Below, one piece after another: positions 1,561-54,056 of a stretch of DNA of 64,000 nt. The position numbers were made by a program, and so were the translations under genes. The notes beneath the pieces are model-generated. The model saw nothing but the letters and a program-made list of their open reading frames with translations. It ran no database searches and had not been told where the DNA came from. Within the stretch, counting starts at the first letter, position 1. Every line of letters starts with the position of its first letter. This DNA is from Candidatus Campbellbacteria bacterium GW2011_OD1_34_28 (GTDB lineage Bacteria > Patescibacteriota > Minisyncoccia > Phycocordibacterales > UBA12079), in NCBI GenBank assembly GCA_001029775.1, contig CP011215.1, positions 490,303 to 554,302 of the forward strand, in the 5' to 3' direction.

Positions 1561-2175
1561 ATGAAACGAATGTTTGAAGGAACCATGTCAATATTGCTTG
1601 CCATCGCCACTCTTTGGCTGATGTCGGATTTGTATCGACAAAGGATCGAGGGGAGAAAGGCAGAAAAGGCTGGTGTTGTTCAGTTGGAGGGAAAAACTGA
1701 GCAGACCCAACAAGGTCCAAAAATCCACGAAGTGGCGAAGGGGAACACTTTGTTTTCCATCGCTCAGCGCTACGCGGTTTCCGTTGAAGCACTGAAAAAA
1801 GCCAACGGATTTTCTCACAGTCGCGATACTTTGTATCCGCGACAACTTCTCGTCATTCCAAAAACAAAGTATGTGGACGAACAGGTTCTTGCTTCTTGGT
1901 ATGGACCAGGATTCCATGGACGGAAAATGGCGAATGGCAAACGGTTTGATCAAAACGATCCAACCGTCGCCGCACACAAAACTTTGCCCCTCGGGACGAA
2001 GTTGCGCGTGACCAGTAAGGACACGGGCAAAAGTATTATTGTTGAAGTTCAGGATCGTGGCCCCTATATTTGGGGTCGTGAACTTGATCTGTCTATGGCG
2101 GCGATGAGGAGAATCGAACCGTTACAGAAAGGGGTTGTTGAGGTGCAGATCGAGACAATTTATCCCAGAGGATAA
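1561..2175 (+). CDS. LysM domain + RlpA-like double-psi beta-barrel protein (septal lytic transglycosylase family)
   Basis: N-terminal TM; LysM (GNTLFSIAQRYAVSVEALKKANG); RlpA motif WYGPGFHGRKMANGKRFD...TAAHKTLPLGTKLRVT...VQDRGPY; GC clearly higher than neighbours; strong RBS AGGAGG. Confidence 0.7.
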   Translation: MKRMFEGTMSILLAIATLWLMSDLYRQRIEGRKAEKAGVVQLEGKTEQTQQGPKIHEVAKGNTLFSIAQRYAVSVEALKKANGFSHSRDTLYPRQLLVIPKTKYVDEQVLASWYGPGFHGRKMANGKRFDQNDPTVAAHKTLPLGTKLRVTSKDTGKSIIVEVQDRGPYIWGRELDLSMAAMRRIEPLQKGVVEVQIETIYPRG

Positions 2176-3533: not shown

Positions 3534-3674
3534 TTTGTAAGTTTTATTTTAATGACGATATAATATCACATGATAATAAATAGTCACTTTTTAAATATTG
3601 CATTGAAAAAGTTAAGTTTTCTGTTAATATTCTAATTATTAAATATTATGGTCCCGTTTTTTCTAATAACTAAA

Positions 3675-3718
3675 ACCTGCCTGCCGTGTCGTTGCTTTTC
3701 TTTCAGAAAAGAGGCAGG
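3675..3718. repeat. 44-nt exact repeat, copy 1 (hairpin-forming; second copy at 46239..46282)
   Basis: ACCTGCCTGCCGTGTCGTTGCTTTTCTTTCAGAAAAGAGGCAGG identical at both loci; outer CCTGCC/GGCAGG stem and inner CTTTTC/GAAAAG stem. Confidence 0.8.
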
Positions 3719-3741
3719 ACTAATGGCTATAAACTTAATAC

Positions 3742-12000: not shown

Positions 12001-12027
12001 CCCTGCCTGCCGGCAGGCAGGTTTAAA
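12001..12027 (+). terminator. perfect 21-nt palindrome terminator
   Basis: CCCTGCCTGCCGGCAGGCAGG + TTTAAATT; shares CCTGCCTGCC with the 44-nt repeat. Confidence 0.55.
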
Positions 12028-12746: not shown

Positions 12747-12837
12747 AAATTTCTTAAACATTATAATCCTAATACCTCAAATTATATCCGAATACTACGA
12801 ATCTTCTCCATCAAGACTTCTAATCACAAAATGTCGT

Positions 12838-12926
12838 GGATTGCTTCGCTTCGCTCGCAAAGACGAATTTCCTTCGGAAATTCGTCAGTGTTGGTTCGTC
12901 TTTGCGAGCGAAGCGAAGCAATCCAG
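12838..12926. repeat. perfect 29-bp inverted repeat with nested 11-bp hairpin; carries GAGCGAAGCGAAG motif
   Basis: GGATTGCTTCGCTTCGCTCGCAAAGACGAA ... TTCGTCTTTGCGAGCGAAGCGAAGCAATCC; centre GACGAATTTCC-TTCG-GGAAATTCGTC; lies between convergent 12248 ORF and dprA. Confidence 0.7.
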
Positions 12927-20425: not shown

Positions 20426-20506
20426 TTGAAATTATTTAATAAATTTGGTACTATTATGCTCAAATCAATTTTGACTTTTGATTTTTAACTTTTAAATTTC
20501 TATAAT

Positions 20507-20640
20507 GCCGAGGTGGCGAATTGGATTAAAAACAAACTGCTTTGTTTTTAATCCGGTTCTGAGCGAAGCGAAGAAATTTCCGTTATCGAGTGAAGCGAGA
20601 TAGGAAATAGGTGGAAGACGCACTAGCCTCTGGTTAAATG
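20507..20640 (+). pseudogene. disrupted tRNA-Leu copy with repeat-module insertion
   Basis: starts GCCGAGGTGGCGAATTGG like the real tRNA-Leu; then AAACAAACTGCTTTGTTT hairpin plus GAGCGAAGCGAAG/GTGAAGCGAG insert; resumes AGACGCACTAGCCT. Confidence 0.55.
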
Positions 20641-20659
20641 AAGCAGGATTGAAAAATAG

Positions 20660-20741
20660 GTAATATAATGCCGAGGTGGCGAAATTGGTAGACGCACTAG
20701 CCTTAGGAGCTAGCGGGGCAACCCATGGAGGTTCAAGTCCT
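20660..20741 (+). tRNA. tRNA-Leu (anticodon TAG), class II
   Basis: acceptor GCCGAGG/CCTCGGC, anticodon loop CTTAGGA, long variable arm, T-loop TTCAAGT. Confidence 0.85.
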
Positions 20742-26644: not shown

Positions 26645-26844
26645 TTGCGGAGGGTACGAGATTCGGCGCCAGTTCTAAATAAAATTTTCGTCCTGCAGAC
26701 TTAATTTTATTAAGAACTCGCTGCCCCCGCTCACTCGTGTTCGTCGCTTCGCTCCTCCATACTCGCTCGGTTCGAATCTCTTCCCCTCGGTGTAACGACA
26801 CAAAACAAAAACAGTGCATTGGTACTGTTTTTGTTTTGGTCGTG
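26645..26844 (-). repeat. tRNA 3'-flank structured repeat element (Ser-GGA copy)
   Basis: minus strand: terminator, GAGGGGAAGAGATTCGAAC (inverted tRNA-Ser 3' end), CGAGCGAG...GGAGCGAAGCGACG core, hairpin GCGAGTTCTTAATAAAATT/AATTTTATTTAGAACTGGCGC, terminal direct repeat CGAATCTCGTACCCTCCGCA. Confidence 0.6.
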
Positions 26845-28416: not shown

Positions 28417-30699
28417 ATGGTAAAAAAAGTTCAAAAAGTTGGAAAAACATCCGATTTTATTAAAAAAGTACAAAAAAGAGACGGAACAGTTGTTTCTTTC
28501 AACGAAGAAAAAATTGTAAATGCTGTTTACAAGGCAATGCTTGTAACAAAAGAAGGATCTGAAAAAGATGCAAGATATATTGCTCACAAGGTTTATGTAG
28601 ATTTGTTGAAAATCGCTAAATTACATAAGACTTTTATTCCTACTATTGAGGGGATTCAAGACTCCGTGGAATCCGAGCTCATTTTGGGAGATTATGTAAA
28701 GACTGCAAAAGCATATATTCTTTACAGAAGAGAAAGAGAAAAATTGAGACAACAGGGGGTTAAGGTACCTGAAAAGGTAAAAATATTGACAGAGGAAAGT
28801 AAAAAGTATTTTAAAAATCCTTTGGCAGAATTTGTTTATTATCGATCTTATTCAAAATGGATAGAAGGAGAAGGTAGAAGAGAGACTTGGGTTGAGACAG
28901 TGGATAGATATATGGGTTTTATGCAAAAAAATCTTGGAAATAGTCTAAAACCTGCAGAATATAAAAAAATAAAAGAATTTATTTTGAGTCAAAAAACAAT
29001 GCCCTCAATGAGATTGATGTGGAGTGCTGGCAATGCTGCAGAAAAGTCTAATGTAACTGGTTACAACTGTTCTTTTATTGCACCTTCAAAACCAGAAGAT
29101 TTTGGAGAAATAATGTATCTATCAATGTGCGGTGCAGGGGTTGGTTTTAGTGCAGAAAGTCATAGCGTTCAAAAATTTCCTCAGATTCAAAAACAAACAG
29201 GAAAGAAGAGACCTTCTTATTTAGTTCCTGACAGTAAAGAGGGTTGGGCTGACGCTTTCGTCTTGGCGGTAAAAACATGGATGGCGGGAGAGGATATCGA
29301 CTTTGATTATTCACAGGTTAGACCAAAGGGGGCAAAACTTAAAACAATGGGTGGAAAAAGTTCGGGACCAGAACCTCTTATGGAATTGATGAGTTTTGCA
29401 AAAGAAAAGATTTTAAGAAAACAGGGGAGAAGATTGAGCAACTTGGATGTCCACGATATTGTTTGCAAGATTGGAGAAATTGTTGTTTCTGGAGGAGTGA
29501 GAAGGACTGCTTTGATATCGTTGTCTGATTTGGACGACAAAGATATGAGATCTGCAAAATTTGGACAATTTTATATTACAGAACCACAAAGAAGTATGGC
29601 AAATAATTCTGCCATCTATAATGAAAAACCAACAAATGTTGAATTTATGGATGAGTGGATAGCCTTGATGAAAAGCGGTTCGGGAGAAAGAGGCATCTTT
29701 AATAGAGGGTCTTTAAAAAACCAAATGCCTGATAGAAGATGGAAGGTTTTTGAAAAAGATTTGGATAGTTGTGGGACAAATCCTTGTGGTGAAATTGTCT
29801 TGAAATCCAAACAATTTTGTAATTTGTCTGAAATAGTTGCTCGTGCGGAAGACACAGAAGCTATTCTTATGGAGAAAGCAAGAATTGCAGCAATTTTGGG
29901 AACTTATCAGTCAACACTGACCAACTTTGGATATCTTTCAAAAGAATGGAAAAAGAATTGTGAGGACGAAAGATTGCTCGGAGTATCAATTACAGGACAG
30001 TGGGATTGTAAGATTTTGAAAGATAATGCAAAACTTTTGCAAAAATTAAAAAATGAAGTTATCAAAACCAACAAAGACTATGCAAAAAGATTTAAAATAA
30101 ATCAGTCTACTTGTACGACTTGTGTAAAACCTTCTGGAACAGTTTCTCAATTGGTAGACGCTTCATCAGGAATGCATCCTCGGCACTCAGAATATTATAT
30201 TAGAAGAGTGAGAATTTCTGCGACAGATAGTTTGTTCAAGATGCTAAAAGATCAAGGAGTTTTGTATCATCCAGAAGTAGGGCAGTCATATGAGAATGCC
30301 AATACTTATGTTTTGGAATTTCCCGTTAAGGCGCCTGCAAAATCTGTTTTCAAAAATGATTTAACAGCAATAGAGCAGTTGGAACACTGGAAATTGGTAA
30401 AAACAAATTATACAGAACACAATCCGTCAGTAACAATTTCTGTTGGTGAAGGTGAATGGATTGAAGTGGGGAATTGGGTTTATTCAAATTGGGATATCGT
30501 CGGGGGGCTTTCGTTTTTACCAAGATCAAACCATGTTTACAAGCTGGCTCCGTATGAAGAAATTGATAAAAAAAGATATGATGAGATGTTGAAGCGATTT
30601 AAAAATATTGATTTCTCAAAGATTGTGACTTATGAAAGAGCCGATGAAACTGAAGGAGCAAAAGAATTGGCTTGTATGGGGGGAGTGTGCGAACTTTAA
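28417..30699 (+). CDS. nrdJ: ribonucleotide reductase, likely class II (B12-dependent)
   Basis: N-terminal ATP-cone (VQKRDGTVVSFNEEKIVNAV); RNR catalytic barrel with active-site Cys; C-terminal CMGGVCEL. Confidence 0.7.
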   Translation: MVKKVQKVGKTSDFIKKVQKRDGTVVSFNEEKIVNAVYKAMLVTKEGSEKDARYIAHKVYVDLLKIAKLHKTFIPTIEGIQDSVESELILGDYVKTAKAYILYRREREKLRQQGVKVPEKVKILTEESKKYFKNPLAEFVYYRSYSKWIEGEGRRETWVETVDRYMGFMQKNLGNSLKPAEYKKIKEFILSQKTMPSMRLMWSAGNAAEKSNVTGYNCSFIAPSKPEDFGEIMYLSMCGAGVGFSAESHSVQKFPQIQKQTGKKRPSYLVPDSKEGWADAFVLAVKTWMAGEDIDFDYSQVRPKGAKLKTMGGKSSGPEPLMELMSFAKEKILRKQGRRLSNLDVHDIVCKIGEIVVSGGVRRTALISLSDLDDKDMRSAKFGQFYITEPQRSMANNSAIYNEKPTNVEFMDEWIALMKSGSGERGIFNRGSLKNQMPDRRWKVFEKDLDSCGTNPCGEIVLKSKQFCNLSEIVARAEDTEAILMEKARIAAILGTYQSTLTNFGYLSKEWKKNCEDERLLGVSITGQWDCKILKDNAKLLQKLKNEVIKTNKDYAKRFKINQSTCTTCVKPSGTVSQLVDASSGMHPRHSEYYIRRVRISATDSLFKMLKDQGVLYHPEVGQSYENANTYVLEFPVKAPAKSVFKNDLTAIEQLEHWKLVKTNYTEHNPSVTISVGEGEWIEVGNWVYSNWDIVGGLSFLPRSNHVYKLAPYEEIDKKRYDEMLKRFKNIDFSKIVTYERADETEGAKELACMGGVCEL

Positions 30700-31764: not shown

Positions 31765-32313
31765 CTACTCTACGATTTGTAACTTAGGCCATTTCGAAAG
31801 CCATTGTTTTTTGTTTACTCGATTTATAAAATAATCACGCCCATCTCCAAAATTGGGGGTCATTCTTAGTTTAAGAGAAAATAAATCATCTAAACCGTGA
31901 GGAGCTATTATTTTTAAAGAATCGTCTGGCAACATTACAACTCCAATAGCTGTCGCTGTTTCTGGCCAATGTGTGATAGCATCTGTCGACGAAATATAAT
32001 CAGCCCCCTGATTGTTTATTTTCCCCATTCTTGCTTGATTGGTAACAGACCAATCAGCTTCTAATTTTTCTGAAAGAATCCTTTCGTATTTTTTTTCTGT
32101 CTCTTCTGATAAGTCATTTGGATCAAAATATATAACATCAATATCTGTCATATGTGGTTTGTTTTTAAAATTATGTAATGCATCCCAAACAGGGTTACGG
32201 ACAAATCCAGCTCCGATCAACCAATCAGGAAGATTTAATGTGCGAACAGTTCTTAAGATATCCATTCTCCAAGGATCGTTTTTTATTATATTGACGATAA
32301 AATCTTCGTTCAT
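31765..32313 (-). CDS. nucleotidyltransferase-family protein
   Basis: WLIGAGFVRNPVWDALH motif. Confidence 0.5.
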   Translation of the reverse strand: MNEDFIVNIIKNDPWRMDILRTVRTLNLPDWLIGAGFVRNPVWDALHNFKNKPHMTDIDVIYFDPNDLSEETEKKYERILSEKLEADWSVTNQARMGKINNQGADYISSTDAITHWPETATAIGVVMLPDDSLKIIAPHGLDDLFSLKLRMTPNFGDGRDYFINRVNKKQWLSKWPKLQIVE

Positions 32314-32329
32314 TTTTAAAAGTATATCA

Positions 32330-32470
32330 TTTATATTTTTTACGAAAAGCGTGGGGGCGCTTTTCTTTGACTATGATGACTCGACTTCCAGTTCTAATCG
32401 AAAATTTCGTCTTCACTTCGTTACAACTCATTTTCGATAAGAACTCGCTGTCCCGTCGCTCATATTTTTC
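32330..32470 (-). repeat. solo/degenerate copy of tRNA-flank repeat module (no adjacent tRNA)
   Basis: rc: GAGCGACGGGACAGCGAGTTCTTATCGAAAAT...ATTTTCGATTAGAACTGGAAGTCGAGTC; same hairpin module as the Ser copy. Confidence 0.45.
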
Positions 32471-32549
32471 TATATACAAAACACCTAGAATTTTTGTTAA
32501 TTTTGTAATATAATTCAAGATATTTTAAGTTTTTAACTTTTGATATTTG

Positions 32550-32621
32550 GGCGTAGTGGCGAAGTGGAAACGCTGTGGTCTGCAAAACCACCATGCGCCG
32601 GTTCGATTCCGGCCTACGCCT
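32550..32621 (+). tRNA. tRNA-Cys (anticodon GCA)
   Basis: acceptor GGCGTAG/CTACGCC, anticodon loop CTGCAAA, T-loop TTCGATT. Confidence 0.8.
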
Positions 32622-32627
32622 CAAAAT

Positions 32628-32709
32628 GCCTGGGTGGCGGAATTGGTATACGCGCACGACTTAAAATCGTGTCTCGCAAGAGATGCGGGTTCGACTCCCG
32701 CCCTAGGCA
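32628..32709 (+). tRNA. tRNA-Leu (anticodon TAA), class II
   Basis: acceptor GCCTGGG/CCTAGGC, anticodon loop CTTAAAA, long variable arm, T-loop TTCGACT. Confidence 0.85.
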
Positions 32710-32748
32710 CATTGAAATTTTTTGAAATTTCAATACAATAGTGTATTA

Positions 32749-32992
32749 TCCGCTCGTAGCTCAGCTGGATGAGAAGCGTTGAAGCTTCGAATCCGAGCGA
32801 AGCGAGGTGGAAGAGTATTCCTTTGAAATGTAAGAGTCGGATGCTAATACACTTAGCATGGACTTCAGAGGTTTTACACAAAAGTAAAAGTAGAGATATC
32901 CGCTCGTAGCTCAGCTTCTGCCAAAGGCAGACAGGGTCCGAGCAACAATCATTGAGACAGACAAGTCTGTAAAATCATCATGGATTTAGTAT
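32749..32992 (+). pseudogene. two truncated 5' copies of tRNA-Lys each followed by unrelated structured sequence
   Basis: TCCGCTCGTAGCTCAGCT(GG) occurs at 32749, 32899 and 32991; only the third continues into a full tRNA; copy 1 is followed by CTTCGAATCCGAGCGAAGCGAGG. Confidence 0.55.
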
Positions 32993-33065
32993 CCGCTCGT
33001 AGCTCAGCTGGTAGAGCATCCGACTCTTAATCGGCAGGTCGAAGGTTCGATCCCTTCCGAGCGGA
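32993..33065 (+). tRNA. tRNA-Lys (anticodon CTT)
   Basis: acceptor CCGCTCG/CGAGCGG, D-arm GCTCAGCTGGTAGAGC, anticodon loop CTCTTAA, T-loop TTCGATC. Confidence 0.8.
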
Positions 33066-33157
33066 CAAGTAGACCCGAAGGAGGGTAAACGAATTATTAG
33101 ATAATTTTATATTTCTCGTTTTGAATATATTTCAATTTTGAGATTTAAATTTTTAAC

Positions 33158-33307
33158 ATGTCACAAGATCAATTGATAAAACTGGCTTGTCAGAGTTGTA
33201 AAAGAATCAATTACTGGAGCAGAAAAAATAAAAAACTGGTTCAAAAAAAGATTGAATTGAAGAAAAGATGTAAATGGTGTGATAAGCAAACAGTTCACAA
33301 AGAAGTA
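33158..33307 (+). CDS. rpmG: 50S ribosomal protein L33
   Basis: 49-aa ORF absent from the ORF track: MSQDQLIKLACQSCKRINYWSRKNKKLVQKKIELKKRCKWCDKQTVHKK with two CxxC pairs. Confidence 0.7.
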
Positions 33308-33325
33308 AAAAAATAATTTCAAAAT

Positions 33326-33355
33326 TTAGTCGATACTTTATAAACTTTTAACTTT
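33326..33355 (-). repeat. short TTTATAAAGT-type repeat, reverse copy of 55137..55160
   Basis: rc GTTAAAAGTTTATAAAGT matches 55140..55160. Confidence 0.45.
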
Positions 33356-33374
33356 ATAAACTTTCGACTAATTT

Positions 33375-33447
33375 GGGCCTATAGTTTCAATTGGTAAAAC
33401 AGTGGTCTCCAAAACCATCGTTCGAGGTTCGAGTCCTCGTGGGCCCG
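33375..33447 (+). tRNA. tRNA-Trp (anticodon CCA)
   Basis: acceptor GGGCCTA/TGGGCCC, anticodon loop CTCCAAA, T-loop TTCGAGT. Confidence 0.85.
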
Positions 33448-33681
33448 CAAAAAGAAGACCCGCAAGGGTTTTTCTTTTTGTTGGGTCCACGAACAAAGCA
33501 ATCTAAATTGCTTTGTGTAGGACGAGAACGGCGGAGCGGTTTACAATTTTAGTAAAATTTTCCAACAAAGAAAATCTTACTAAAATTGTCGCGAGCCGCG
33601 TCCAGCGATACTTAGACTTTTTGAAACACGAAGTGTTTCAAAAAGACTTAGTAATCGCGGGACAGTCCTCGTGGGCCCGCA
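33448..33681 (+). repeat. tRNA 3'-flank structured repeat element (Trp copy)
   Basis: terminator hairpin, GTAGGACGAGAACGGCGGAGCGG core, variable hairpin, arm GCGAGCCGCGTCCAGCGATACTTAGAC + long hairpin TTTTTGAAACACGAAGTGTTTCAAAAAG + AGACTTAGTAATCGCGGGAC, direct repeat AGTCCTCGTGGGCCCGCA of the tRNA-Trp 3' end. Confidence 0.65.
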
Positions 33682-33683
33682 AT

Positions 33684-33718
33684 TTAAAAACTCTCCACAA
33701 AAGTGGAGAGTTTTTAAA
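33684..33718. terminator. bidirectional terminator
   Basis: AAAAACTCTCCAC-AAAA-GTGGAGAGTTTTT. Confidence 0.7.
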
Positions 33719-33720
33719 TT

Positions 33721-34047
33721 CTAGATCTTATGAGATATTTCATCAATACGTTGTCTATTTTTTTCACCTCTGTCAATTTCAAAATCAAAGAAGGGAATCC
33801 TTTTCATTCTTACCTTTGGTTTGATGAATTCTTTGAAGTCTCTTCTTTTTCTTTTTAAAAAATTAATTACAGATTCTTCACTTGTTTCAGGATAAACGGT
33901 AACAAAAATAGTGGCTCTTTTAAAGTCTTTTGAAACACTGGCATCGGTTACAGTTATTAGGGAAGTATAGTTTGATTCTTCCTGTAAAAATTGAGCCGCT
34001 TGATTTCTTATTAGTTCTTTTACTTTGTCCTGTCTTAAATCAGTCAT
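33721..34047 (-). CDS. rbfA: ribosome-binding factor A
   Basis: KH-like RbfA fold, RVQELIRNQ-type N-terminus, C-terminal basic tail. Confidence 0.8.
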   Translation of the reverse strand: MTDLRQDKVKELIRNQAAQFLQEESNYTSLITVTDASVSKDFKRATIFVTVYPETSEESVINFLKRKRRDFKEFIKPKVRMKRIPFFDFEIDRGEKNRQRIDEISHKI

Positions 34048-46217: not shown

Positions 46218-46238
46218 AGCTGCTAGCTTGTAGCCAAT
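46218..46238 (+). promoter_or_regulatory. AGCTNNT heptamer triplet
   Basis: AGCTGCT AGCTTGT AGCCAAT directly preceding the 44-nt repeat. Confidence 0.3.
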
Positions 46239-46282
46239 ACCTGCCTGCCGTGTCGTTGCTTTTCTTTCAGAAAAGAGGCAGG
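46239..46282. repeat. 44-nt exact repeat, copy 2
   Basis: identical to 3675..3718. Confidence 0.8.
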
Positions 46283-46534
46283 GTTGATAGTGGTAATCAA
46301 AATGAGTTTACAGTTTACAGCAAAGACGGAAGAATTTTGGCAAAGCCAAAATTCTTCCGCACTTGCTACTTGATACTAGCTACTTTATACTTGGTTCAGT
46401 GTATTGGGCAAAAGTGTGCTGTTACCATCACGGCCAAAACTCTCCAGCGCGCATCTCTTTTATTTGCCTTTTTACACAAAACCCGCCATTCGGCGGGTTT
46501 TTTTACTTGCTACTTATTACTCAGCACTTTTTAC

Positions 46535-53810: not shown

Positions 53811-54056
53811 CAAAATAAAAACAGGTGTAGCGAAAGCTCCGCCTGTTTTTATTTTGTGTTCTCACAGAAAGCAAACTGCTTTGCTTTCGTCAGGAATCGA
53901 ACGGTGGAGCATGTCGCACGCAAGTTATTTTCTCCCACAAAGAGAAAATAACGAGTACGACAGCGAACCGCGTCCAGCGATACTTGGGATTTTTTGAAAC
54001 ACGAAGTGTTTTGAAAAAGACTTAGTAATCGCGGGACGATTCCTGGTGAGAGCACA
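53811..54056 (+). repeat. tRNA 3'-flank structured repeat element (Arg copy; best-preserved)
   Basis: GCAAACTGCTTTGC hairpin; GTGTTCTCAC..TCAGGAATCGAAC = rc of tRNA 3' half; core GAACGGTGGAGC; variable hairpin; CGAACCGCGTCCAGCGATACTTGGG + long hairpin + AGACTTAGTAATCGCGGGAC; terminal direct repeat CGATTCCTGGTGAGAGCACA. Confidence 0.7.

Follow-up and report, generated by a model that had tools for sequence, protein, structure and literature searches.

Strain-variable arrays of short non-coding modules headed by partial tRNA-Lys copies in a Campbellbacteria genome

Integration into tRNA genes is central to the biology of mobile elements in prokaryotes and has been described almost exclusively for kilobase-sized elements with an integrase of their own. 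Classically, these duplicate the 3′ part of the gene, with sublocations in the anticodon loop, the T-loop, and the 3′ end (PMC7192596, PMC9897764, PMC8371274). The established signature of an integrase is inserted DNA flanked by partial repeats of the tRNA and, where a single attB is used repeatedly, a tandem array (PMC7192596, PMC9897764). Targeting of the 5′ half is a property of archaeal pTN3-like integrases and is “seldomly encountered in bacteria” (PMC8371274). For Patescibacteria, our literature searches on tRNA features turned up only group I introns, located in the anticodon loop (PMC13011429), and no account of 5′-sided miniature modules. Here, we describe a tRNA-Lys(CTT) locus of “Candidatus Campbellbacteria bacterium GW2011_OD1_34_28” (GCA_001029775.1, contig CP011215.1) in which the 5′ end of the gene occurs three times, the two upstream copies each being followed by a short non-coding unit (units 1 and 2). 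The window analyzed is a stretch of 64,000 nt (positions 490,303 to 554,302 of the contig), and coordinates below refer to it. We see about an even chance that the triplication reflects two miniature insertion cassettes that encode no protein and lie in the 5′ end of tRNA-Lys(CTT) as a short array varying between strains.

The 18-mer TCCGCTCGTAGCTCAGCT is present in three exact plus-strand copies, at 32749, 32899, and 32992 (0 expected; 100 shuffles gave 0), and a search allowing ≤2 mismatches found no fourth. The initial annotation of this DNA had reported the triplication and placed the first two copies correctly; its third coordinate, 32991, was one nucleotide too low, which makes the spacings 150 and 93 nt rather than 150 and 92 nt. 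The real shared block is longer than the 18-mer: it is the 20-nt TATCCGCTCGTAGCTCAGCT, starting at 32747, 32897, and 32990, and copies 1 and 3 are common to 22 nt (the block followed by GG). It represents positions −3 to +17/+19 of tRNA-Lys(CTT), with its 3′ limit in the D-loop, and since it reaches 3 nt outside the mature tRNA, it is a DNA-level copy rather than a copy of mature tRNA. Copy 1 (TATCCGCTCGTAGCTCAGCTGG, 32747 to 32768) spans −3 to +19 and copy 2 (32897 to 32916) spans −3 to +17, both on the plus strand, and copy 3 is the first 17 to 19 nt of the intact tRNA-Lys(CTT) (32993 to 33066, plus strand) together with TAT at 32990 to 32992. That only the last copy is a full tRNA, as initially annotated, was confirmed by ARAGORN, which found a tRNA at 32993 to 33066 and none at copies 1 and 2, and by Rfam (tRNA, 68.6 bits); cmscan at E ≤10 across 32300 to 33500 gave no tRNA match in 32747 to 32989. 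Direct or inverted matches of ≥15 nt to tRNA-Lys arose in none of 2,000 shuffles of the 450-nt upstream flank. The gene order is tRNA-Cys, tRNA-Leu(TAA), a 282-nt spacer with both partial copies, tRNA-Lys, rpmG, and tRNA-Trp, and the neighborhood consists of housekeeping genes of a Campbellbacteria/Paceibacterota genome.

An artefact of assembly or binning, which the initial annotation had allowed for, is virtually inconceivable as the source of the repeats; the metagenomic origin of the genome is the sole point in its favor. ENA groundwater contig ERZ909590 (L181), GCA_003489565.1 (L184), and GCA_000990865.1 (L186) all contain this 282-nt spacer in identical form, with the three repeat copies, and relatives carry variant arrays. 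The agreement of three assemblies, and a 20-nt repeat that is far below assembly k-mers and has unique DNA between its copies, exclude assembly duplication.

Strain comparison reveals an insertion/deletion polymorphism with exact boundaries. In L182 and L183, whose flanking genes are 99.3% identical to those of the window, unit 1 is present and unit 2 is absent. The difference between the window and L182 is exactly the 73-nt body of unit 2 plus one repeat copy, as between a filled and an empty site, and repeat copy 2 forms the left boundary of this indel. Unit 1 of L182 matches that of the window exactly over the first 99 nt, and its tail of approximately 50 nt differs at about one in three positions, a divergence far above the genome-wide 0.7% that suggests allele replacement. 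The locus of L036 (approximately 90 to 94% identical) has two copies of unit 1 and no unit 2, and its outer copy is split by a 22-nt CCTGCC palindrome. Given the absence of unit 2 from both L182 and L036, one recent gain would be more parsimonious than two losses. A single clean tRNA-Lys in related genomes had been named at the outset as an outcome that would speak against the triplication. The close strains keep upstream copies, and the more distant relatives L188 and L189 (L33 proteins 85 to 87% identical to that of the window) do have a clean tRNA-Lys, with only 25 nt between tRNA-Leu and tRNA-Lys in L188, which marks the units as additions to an ancestral compact cluster. Four distant loci with L33 homologues (P0031, P0037, P0086, and P0007) lacked tRNA-Lys-rpmG synteny.

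The same region has also been rearranged on a larger scale. The segment from tRNA-Cys to tRNA-Trp/rpmG is inverted relative to its flanks in L182/L183 and L036, with breakpoints that match a 9-nt inverted repeat, CTAGAATTT/AAATTCTAG, at window positions 32485 to 32493 and 33716 to 33724. The NTP_transf_6 gene (31765 to 32313) is absent from the inverted arrangement of L182/L183, and L189 shows yet another rearrangement of these tRNAs. On the minus strand of the window, 32375 to 32471 is what is left of a 3′ module of the tRNA-Trp type (89.7% identity with L036 7412 to 7508). It lies inverted 5′ of tRNA-Cys, where a break of the inversion within a tandem array of 3′ modules would have placed it.

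Unit 1 comprises a 128-nt non-coding body (32769 to 32896; 32747 to 32896 with its repeat), all of its features being described on the plus strand. The hairpins that had been listed initially are present in the sequence. After the repeat comes GAAGC-GTTGAA-GCTTC (32773 to 32788), homologous to the L008 hairpin CTGAAAAGC-GATTAA-GCTTTTCAG in the same place; the segment GAAGCTTCGAATCC, earlier taken to be T-loop-like, is really the 3′ strand of this hairpin plus a linker and lacks a complementary 3′ T-stem strand. There follow a 15-nt hairpin cap, CCGAGCGAAGCGAGG (32793 to 32807), a degenerate sense copy of the tRNA D-stem/anticodon-stem region (about 32812 to 32822), and the antisense 15-mer TAAGAGTCGGATGCT (32831 to 32845). 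The latter, absent from the initial annotation, is the perfect reverse complement of tRNA-Lys positions 23 to 37 (33015 to 33029), i.e., the D-stem 3′ strand, the anticodon stem 5′ strand, and the loop through A37; 0 of 2,000 shuffles attained 15 nt, and it is conserved in L182 and in both L036 units. It overlaps the hairpin ATGCTAATACACTTAGCAT (ATGCTAA-TACAC-TTAGCAT, 32841 to 32859), and the unit ends in an AT-rich, hypervariable tail (32846 to 32896). The plus strand has a predicted fold of −50 kcal/mol (z = −4.5), and the unit gave no tRNA and no other Rfam match. It is homologous to modules at L008 and at tRNA-Leu(TAG) of the window.

Unit 2 has a 73-nt non-coding body (32917 to 32989; 32897 to 32989 with its repeat), likewise on the plus strand. 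The hairpin TCTGCCAAAGGCAGA (TCTGCC-AAA-GGCAGA, 32917 to 32931) lies directly after the repeat and is followed by GGGTCCGAGCAACA (32934 to 32947), which pairs with the repeat in the manner of a tRNA 3′ acceptor strand and D-stem strand, by the conserved TCATTGAG (32949 to 32956), and by a second hairpin, CAGACAAGTCTG (32958 to 32969), and a tail. The core is predicted to form a compact stacked hairpin fold (z = −3.8). Neither insert, of 73 or 128 nt, contains an open reading frame of note or terminal inverted repeats, the best end-to-end inverted match being 3 to 5 nt. A candidate tRNA-Lys(TTT) source of unit 2, P0153, reached via a holA-like neighbor, belongs to another organism and lacks that tRNA.

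A promoter-like sequence, TTGAAA-16-TACAAT (32712 to 32739, plus strand; a consensus match only, at 10 of 12 positions), lies 5′ of the outermost partial copy, and the start predicted from it falls at about the TAT that opens repeat copy 1. Equivalent sigma-70-like sites, again as consensus matches only, are found 5′ of the outermost copy in L036 and L104 and at tRNA-Leu(TAG). No terminator is predicted within units 1 and 2. With the good promoter-like sites outermost and no terminator in the units, both would be transcribed as a leader of pre-tRNA-Lys. The idea that the modules supply their own promoter was rejected, as unit 2 has only a weak site (32952 to 32981, plus strand, 9 of 12 consensus positions) and the good sites lie 5′ of the outermost copy.

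Comparable modules occur 5′ of other tRNA genes, each headed by the 5′ end of its own local tRNA. A unit-1-type module at tRNA-Leu(TAG) of the window (20501 to 20664, plus strand) is headed by a 20-nt copy of positions −6 to +14, TATAATGCCGAGGTGGCGAA. Two hairpins with GGTTCTGAGCGAAGCGAAG between them come next, and after these a sense copy (14 nt) of tRNA positions 21 to 34 (20616 to 20629); the hairpins carry GAGCGAAGCGA caps. L008 has a homologous module of the same architecture 5′ of an identical tRNA-Lys(CTT). The internal tRNA-derived piece is sense in L008 and at tRNA-Leu(TAG) and antisense at tRNA-Lys of the window. The L008 and tRNA-Leu(TAG) modules look like a tRNA 5′ half extending to the anticodon loop and interrupted by hairpins in the D-loop. 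Modules of the unit-2 type lie 5′ of tRNA-Lys(TTT) in L013/L145 and L104, where a T-A pair of the hairpin is replaced by C-G in a compensatory change. Another lies 5′ of tRNA-Cys in L036 and keeps the hairpin, the 15+17-nt spacing to TCATTGAG, and a stretch complementary to the acceptor strand of the local tRNA. The distance from partial copy to tRNA is 74 to 77 nt in all four unit-2-type loci (tRNA-Lys(CTT), tRNA-Lys(TTT), and tRNA-Cys). A further 5′ array is present at tRNA-Lys(TTT) in L099. In L027, a member of the Saccharibacteria, three tandem 73-nt units (1940 to 2175, minus strand) lie 5′ of tRNA-Lys(TTT), each opening with ACAATACATCCGCTCGTAGCT (−9 to +12), and a 3′ module of the L011/L032 type lies downstream, so that the phenomenon extends beyond Paceibacterota. 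A metagenome scan with CCGCTCGTAGCTCAGCTNNNB gave, among the matches listed, mostly chance hits in high-GC coding sequence, and only L099, L104, and L145 were useful.

The 3′ ends of tRNA genes bear a mirror-image arrangement. A full 3′ module has four parts: a terminator, an antisense copy of the tRNA from the T-loop to the 3′ end, a core that is conserved, and a second copy of the same tRNA end in direct orientation. At tRNA-Trp (33449 to 33682, plus strand), the direct copy is 19 nt, from A58 to the 3′ end (33664 to 33682), and sister modules are found at tRNA-Arg (53812 to 54056) and tRNA-Ser(GGA) (26646 to 26843, minus strand); the direct copies at these three modules measure 19 to 20 nt. 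The module at tRNA-Leu(TAG) (20753 to about 20965) has a degenerate direct copy. The Trp, Arg, and Leu cores are homologous (CGAGCCGCGTCCAGCGATACTTAG ... GACTTAGTAATCGCGGGAC), and the Ser core matches a Trp module of L036. Further 3′ modules were found in L011, L032, L036, L099, L104, and L339, and tandem arrays occur. The 3′ core motif had no match in a scan of viral contigs, and the tRNA-repeat pattern matched five stretches there. Between L339 (filled) and L341 (empty), the difference is 191 nt, with a 63-nt repeat, and at a single nucleotide polymorphism (SNP), the distal L339 copy matches the empty allele, which suggests that the tRNA-proximal copy came with the module, as in att-type integration. 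Fragments resembling tRNA-Leu and tRNA-Trp at about 30147 to 30186 proved to be ordinary conserved coding sequence of a ribonucleotide reductase gene.

The two kinds of module obey a side rule, with upstream copies representing 5′ segments and downstream copies 3′ segments and no reversal among the 17 patescibacterial loci counted. Twelve of 13 upstream direct copies begin at the tRNA 5′ end (starts at −11 to +1, ends at +12 to +19), the remaining one being the internal segment 21 to 34, and each of the 12 downstream direct copies extends at least to the 3′ end from a start in or beyond the anticodon/T-loop region. The modules have no coding capacity, and the tRNA genes are intact. The indel, the clean relatives, the modules elsewhere, and the side rule thus back the initial proposal that the triplication is a 5′-side counterpart of 3′ duplications, arising by insertion or recombination at the tRNA.

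Several smaller repeats are scattered through the window. The hairpin cap C(Y)GAGCGAAGCGA(R)G, of 15 nt, occurs nine times versus 0.6 expected (12844, 12906, 20561, 20588, 20842, 20902, 26742, 32795, and 42769), the last inside a tsaD-like coding region. From its sequence, the cap may be read as two closing pairs, tandem G-A pairs, and G-C/C-G pairs around a GAA triloop. A 16-mer around the motif had >120 unrelated viral matches, the motif itself was present in >110 unrelated viral contigs, and the stem was extended by ≥4 Watson-Crick pairs in 12% of viral contexts versus 0.4% expected (e.g., GTCATTCTGAGCGAAGCGAAGAATC). With so many occurrences in unrelated viral contigs, what had initially been treated as a family motif does not mark the module family; it is a generic building block.

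A family of tiny palindromes, CCTGCCTGCCGG..GGCAGG, is represented at window positions 12003 to 12022, L036 6481 to 6502, L104 about 122 to 141, and L013 3758 and in L145; within module repeats, it splits CCGCTCGTA|GCTCAG (unit 1a of L036) and TTCCTGCCG|AGCGGACA (L104). The hairpin AAAGCAAACTGCTTTGCTTT gave six matches versus 0.55 expected, including 3870, 44535 (minus strand), 53871, 20532, and 9710 (minus strand) in the window, often beside tRNA genes or in the antisense arm of 3′ modules. Positions 12830 to 12925 form a near-perfect hairpin of approximately 95 nt from GGATTGCTTCGCTTCGCTCGCAAAGACGAA... and its complement, and a related palindrome lies 5′ of the tRNA-Lys module in L008 (1820 to 1985). 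A 73-nt repeat containing CCTGCCTGCCG...GGCAGG is present at 3667 to 3739 and 46231 to 46303 (82% identity between copies), with one copy directly 5′ of tRNA-Glu(CTC) and preceded by a possible degenerate copy of the 5′ end of this tRNA, GGTCCCGTTTTTTCTAA.

Known genetic structures did not account for the locus. When the locus and two sister loci were searched with Rfam, nothing but tRNAs and noise came up at gathering or permissive thresholds; these loci matched no known RNA family and no group I intron, T-box, or CRISPR repeat. A group I intron was rejected on the basis of no Intron_gpI match at permissive thresholds and an uninterrupted tRNA, and a split or permuted tRNA gene on the basis of the intact tRNA-Lys(CTT). 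A CRISPR array was likewise rejected, given the unequal spacings, a third repeat within a tRNA, and no cas among the called genes. No recombinase Pfam family was found among the called genes of the window.

Under the interpretation that we favor, the block of approximately 20 nt (−3 to +17/+19) bounding each cassette would act like an att core. Recombination across the block, in or just before the D-loop, would place a cassette between promoter and gene; one block copy would regenerate the 5′ end of the gene and the other would be pushed upstream, so that copy 1 would be the 5′ end that was displaced first. The tRNA would remain intact, and a further event there would stack a new cassette beside the gene, and later unequal recombination or slippage between repeats might duplicate or delete units. 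The cassettes, with hairpins and no terminator, would be transcribed in the pre-tRNA leader, and the tRNA would still be expressed. The same logic would be mirrored at the 3′ modules, which duplicate the T-loop-to-3′-end segment and carry their own terminator. On this account, cassettes would move rather than only being lost, a trans-acting recombinase of the host or of an element would presumably do the moving, and the crossover would lie within the block.

Several observations weigh against this account. Cassettes of 73 to 128 nt are far below the size of any known integrative element, and recombination is unlikely to act on a circle of approximately 95 to 150 bp. We found neither an excised form nor an empty-site read nor an autonomous relative, and no integrase, transposase, or reverse transcriptase beside any array examined or in the window. 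Deletion between repeats, or allelic replacement by homologous recombination, can also generate such polymorphisms. The unit-1 type looks like a D-loop-interrupted tRNA 5′ half, which a simple att model would not predict, and the SNP argument is one substitution, in a 3′ module rather than a 5′ one. Comparison backs the core of the initial proposal, insertion or recombination at the tRNA; targeted insertion as an active process would be a further step, since no recombinase was detected and loss between repeats explains part of the polymorphism equally well. A wider version appears doubtful, although possible: an undescribed class of miniature, protein-less cassettes would home into both tRNA ends (D-loop and T-loop sides), each with a replacement terminus and a foldback target mimic, through a trans-acting Xer-like recombinase of the host or an element or through RNA- or single-strand-templated insertion, yielding polar arrays and seeding rearrangements such as the tRNA-rpmG inversion.

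The arrays might instead have grown without any targeting, by slippage or unequal crossing-over of the 5′ region or the whole gene followed by decay, with gene conversion keeping 20 nt intact. The plain 73-nt tandem array of L027, whose units resemble diverged 5′ halves, and the two near-identical unit-1 copies of L036 would fit local duplication; the end of unit 2, TCCGAGCAACA, resembles the tRNA 3′ end, TCCGAGCGGACA; small CCTGCC..GGCAGG palindromes demonstrably land inside repeats; and deletion between 20-nt repeats is easy. However, the bodies are not derived from the tRNA or its flanks, and they are homologous between tRNA-Leu(TAG) and tRNA-Lys and between tRNA-Cys and tRNA-Lys. Unit-2-type modules share the same hairpin, 17-nt spacing, and TCATTGAG, and their 74- to 77-nt distance to the tRNA is kept across genomes and tRNAs, a convergence not expected of independent decay, so we regard this route as unlikely. 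Ordinary large phages or plasmids with 5′-half integrases, mostly deleted in streamlined genomes, could have left partial tRNA repeats and tandem arrays as scars, these being classic integrase signatures (PMC7192596); 5′-half attB sites exist (PMC8371274), and patescibacterial genomes are strongly reduced. Random deletion should nevertheless leave scars of arbitrary size and content, whereas the modules fall into families with conserved length and architecture across tRNAs and genomes, and with no integrase remnant or open reading frame, and no large element with these ends in the fetched loci, such scars are very unlikely.

Selection on RNA function offers a different view, in which the units would be functional leader RNAs, for instance tRNA-like minihelices within the pre-tRNA-Lys leader, serving as substrates of RNase P or processing, as decoys, or as an antisense regulator through the 15-nt complement to the anticodon arm. 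Both units have strong predicted plus-strand folds (z = −4.5 for unit 1 and −3.8 for the unit-2 core), and base changes fit pairing in both: compensatory in the unit-2 hairpin and G-U compatible in the unit-1 hairpin of L182. The internal segment co-varies with the acceptor strand between Lys and Cys, the antisense 15-mer is conserved in three genomes, and the units are in tRNA orientation, 3′ of the only good promoter-like site, with no terminator. The units are nonetheless dispensable, as a strain of 99.3% identity lacks unit 2 and L188/L189 lack both; they match no Rfam family, and the unit-2-type sequences number only four, one of them poorly aligned, too few for covariation statistics. 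The internal piece, sense in L008 and at tRNA-Leu and antisense here, also argues against one conserved RNA function, and a role of this kind is quite improbable.

The consequences depend in part on whether the modules really move. If they do, they would be the smallest tRNA-targeting elements known, and the question would arise of a trans-acting enzyme in genomes of approximately 1 Mb. The signature known from tRNA-gene integration is found here at the 5′ end, with non-coding modules of approximately 75 to 130 nt at several tRNAs, in Paceibacterota and Saccharibacteria. Kilobase-sized, 3′-duplicating elements are already known, and a 5′-sided, miniature type would be a new form of tRNA-targeted integration. 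In annotation, partial tRNA copies and “leaders” of 130 to 280 nt could be misread. The arrays could be used for strain typing in candidate-phyla-radiation populations, and the modules are likely breakpoints of local inversions between near-identical strains.

Among known systems, att-type integration (Islander/TIGER-type, with the sublocations of Williams 2002) shares with the present arrays a direct repeat of a tRNA fragment, an intact tRNA at one end, and array formation, and the 3′ modules start in the T-loop, a classic sublocation (PMC7192596, PMC8371274). Such elements span 2 to 200 kb and carry an integrase, whereas the modules are 73 to 230 nt and non-coding. Known bacterial cases nearly always duplicate the 3′ part and keep the original promoter, whereas the part duplicated here is the 5′ segment from −3 to +19, and its D-loop-region repeat lies outside the three described sublocations, one of which is occupied by the 3′ modules only. 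The pTN3-like integrases are similar in having an attachment site in the 5′ portion of the tRNA and a 5′ fragment displaced upstream (PMC8371274). They belong to archaeal plasmids and viruses; the integrase is suicidal, and its promoter takes over expression of the recombinant tRNA. In the present case, the host is bacterial, there is no integrase fragment, the repeat is of approximately 20 nt rather than half a gene and stops at the D-loop, and it is the outermost displaced copy that retains the best promoter-like site, all unlike the pTN3-like arrangement.

Systems with folded single-strand attachment sites (integron attC cassettes and the CTX-phi attP used by XerCD) are comparable in that their cassettes are small, often non-coding, and arrayed in the same orientation. 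The order “target copy–apex hairpin–complementary copy” of the unit-2 type and of the 3′ modules could fold as a mimic of a target duplex, a structural analogy only, and no IntI, R′/R″ core sites, or dif-like sequence was identified at these loci. Repetitive extragenic palindromes and their mosaic elements (REP/BIME) and miniature inverted-repeat transposable elements (MITEs) are likewise short, non-coding, hairpin-rich, multicopy, and strain variable, and the GAGCGAAGCGA caps and CCTGCC palindromes are shared with other intergenic sites. MITEs differ in having terminal inverted repeats and a short (2 to 14 bp) target-site duplication, in place of which the modules have a flanking repeat of 20 to 22 nt. 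Unlike both REP sequences and MITEs, the modules are tied to the ends of tRNA genes and carry a 20-nt repeat matched to the tRNA.

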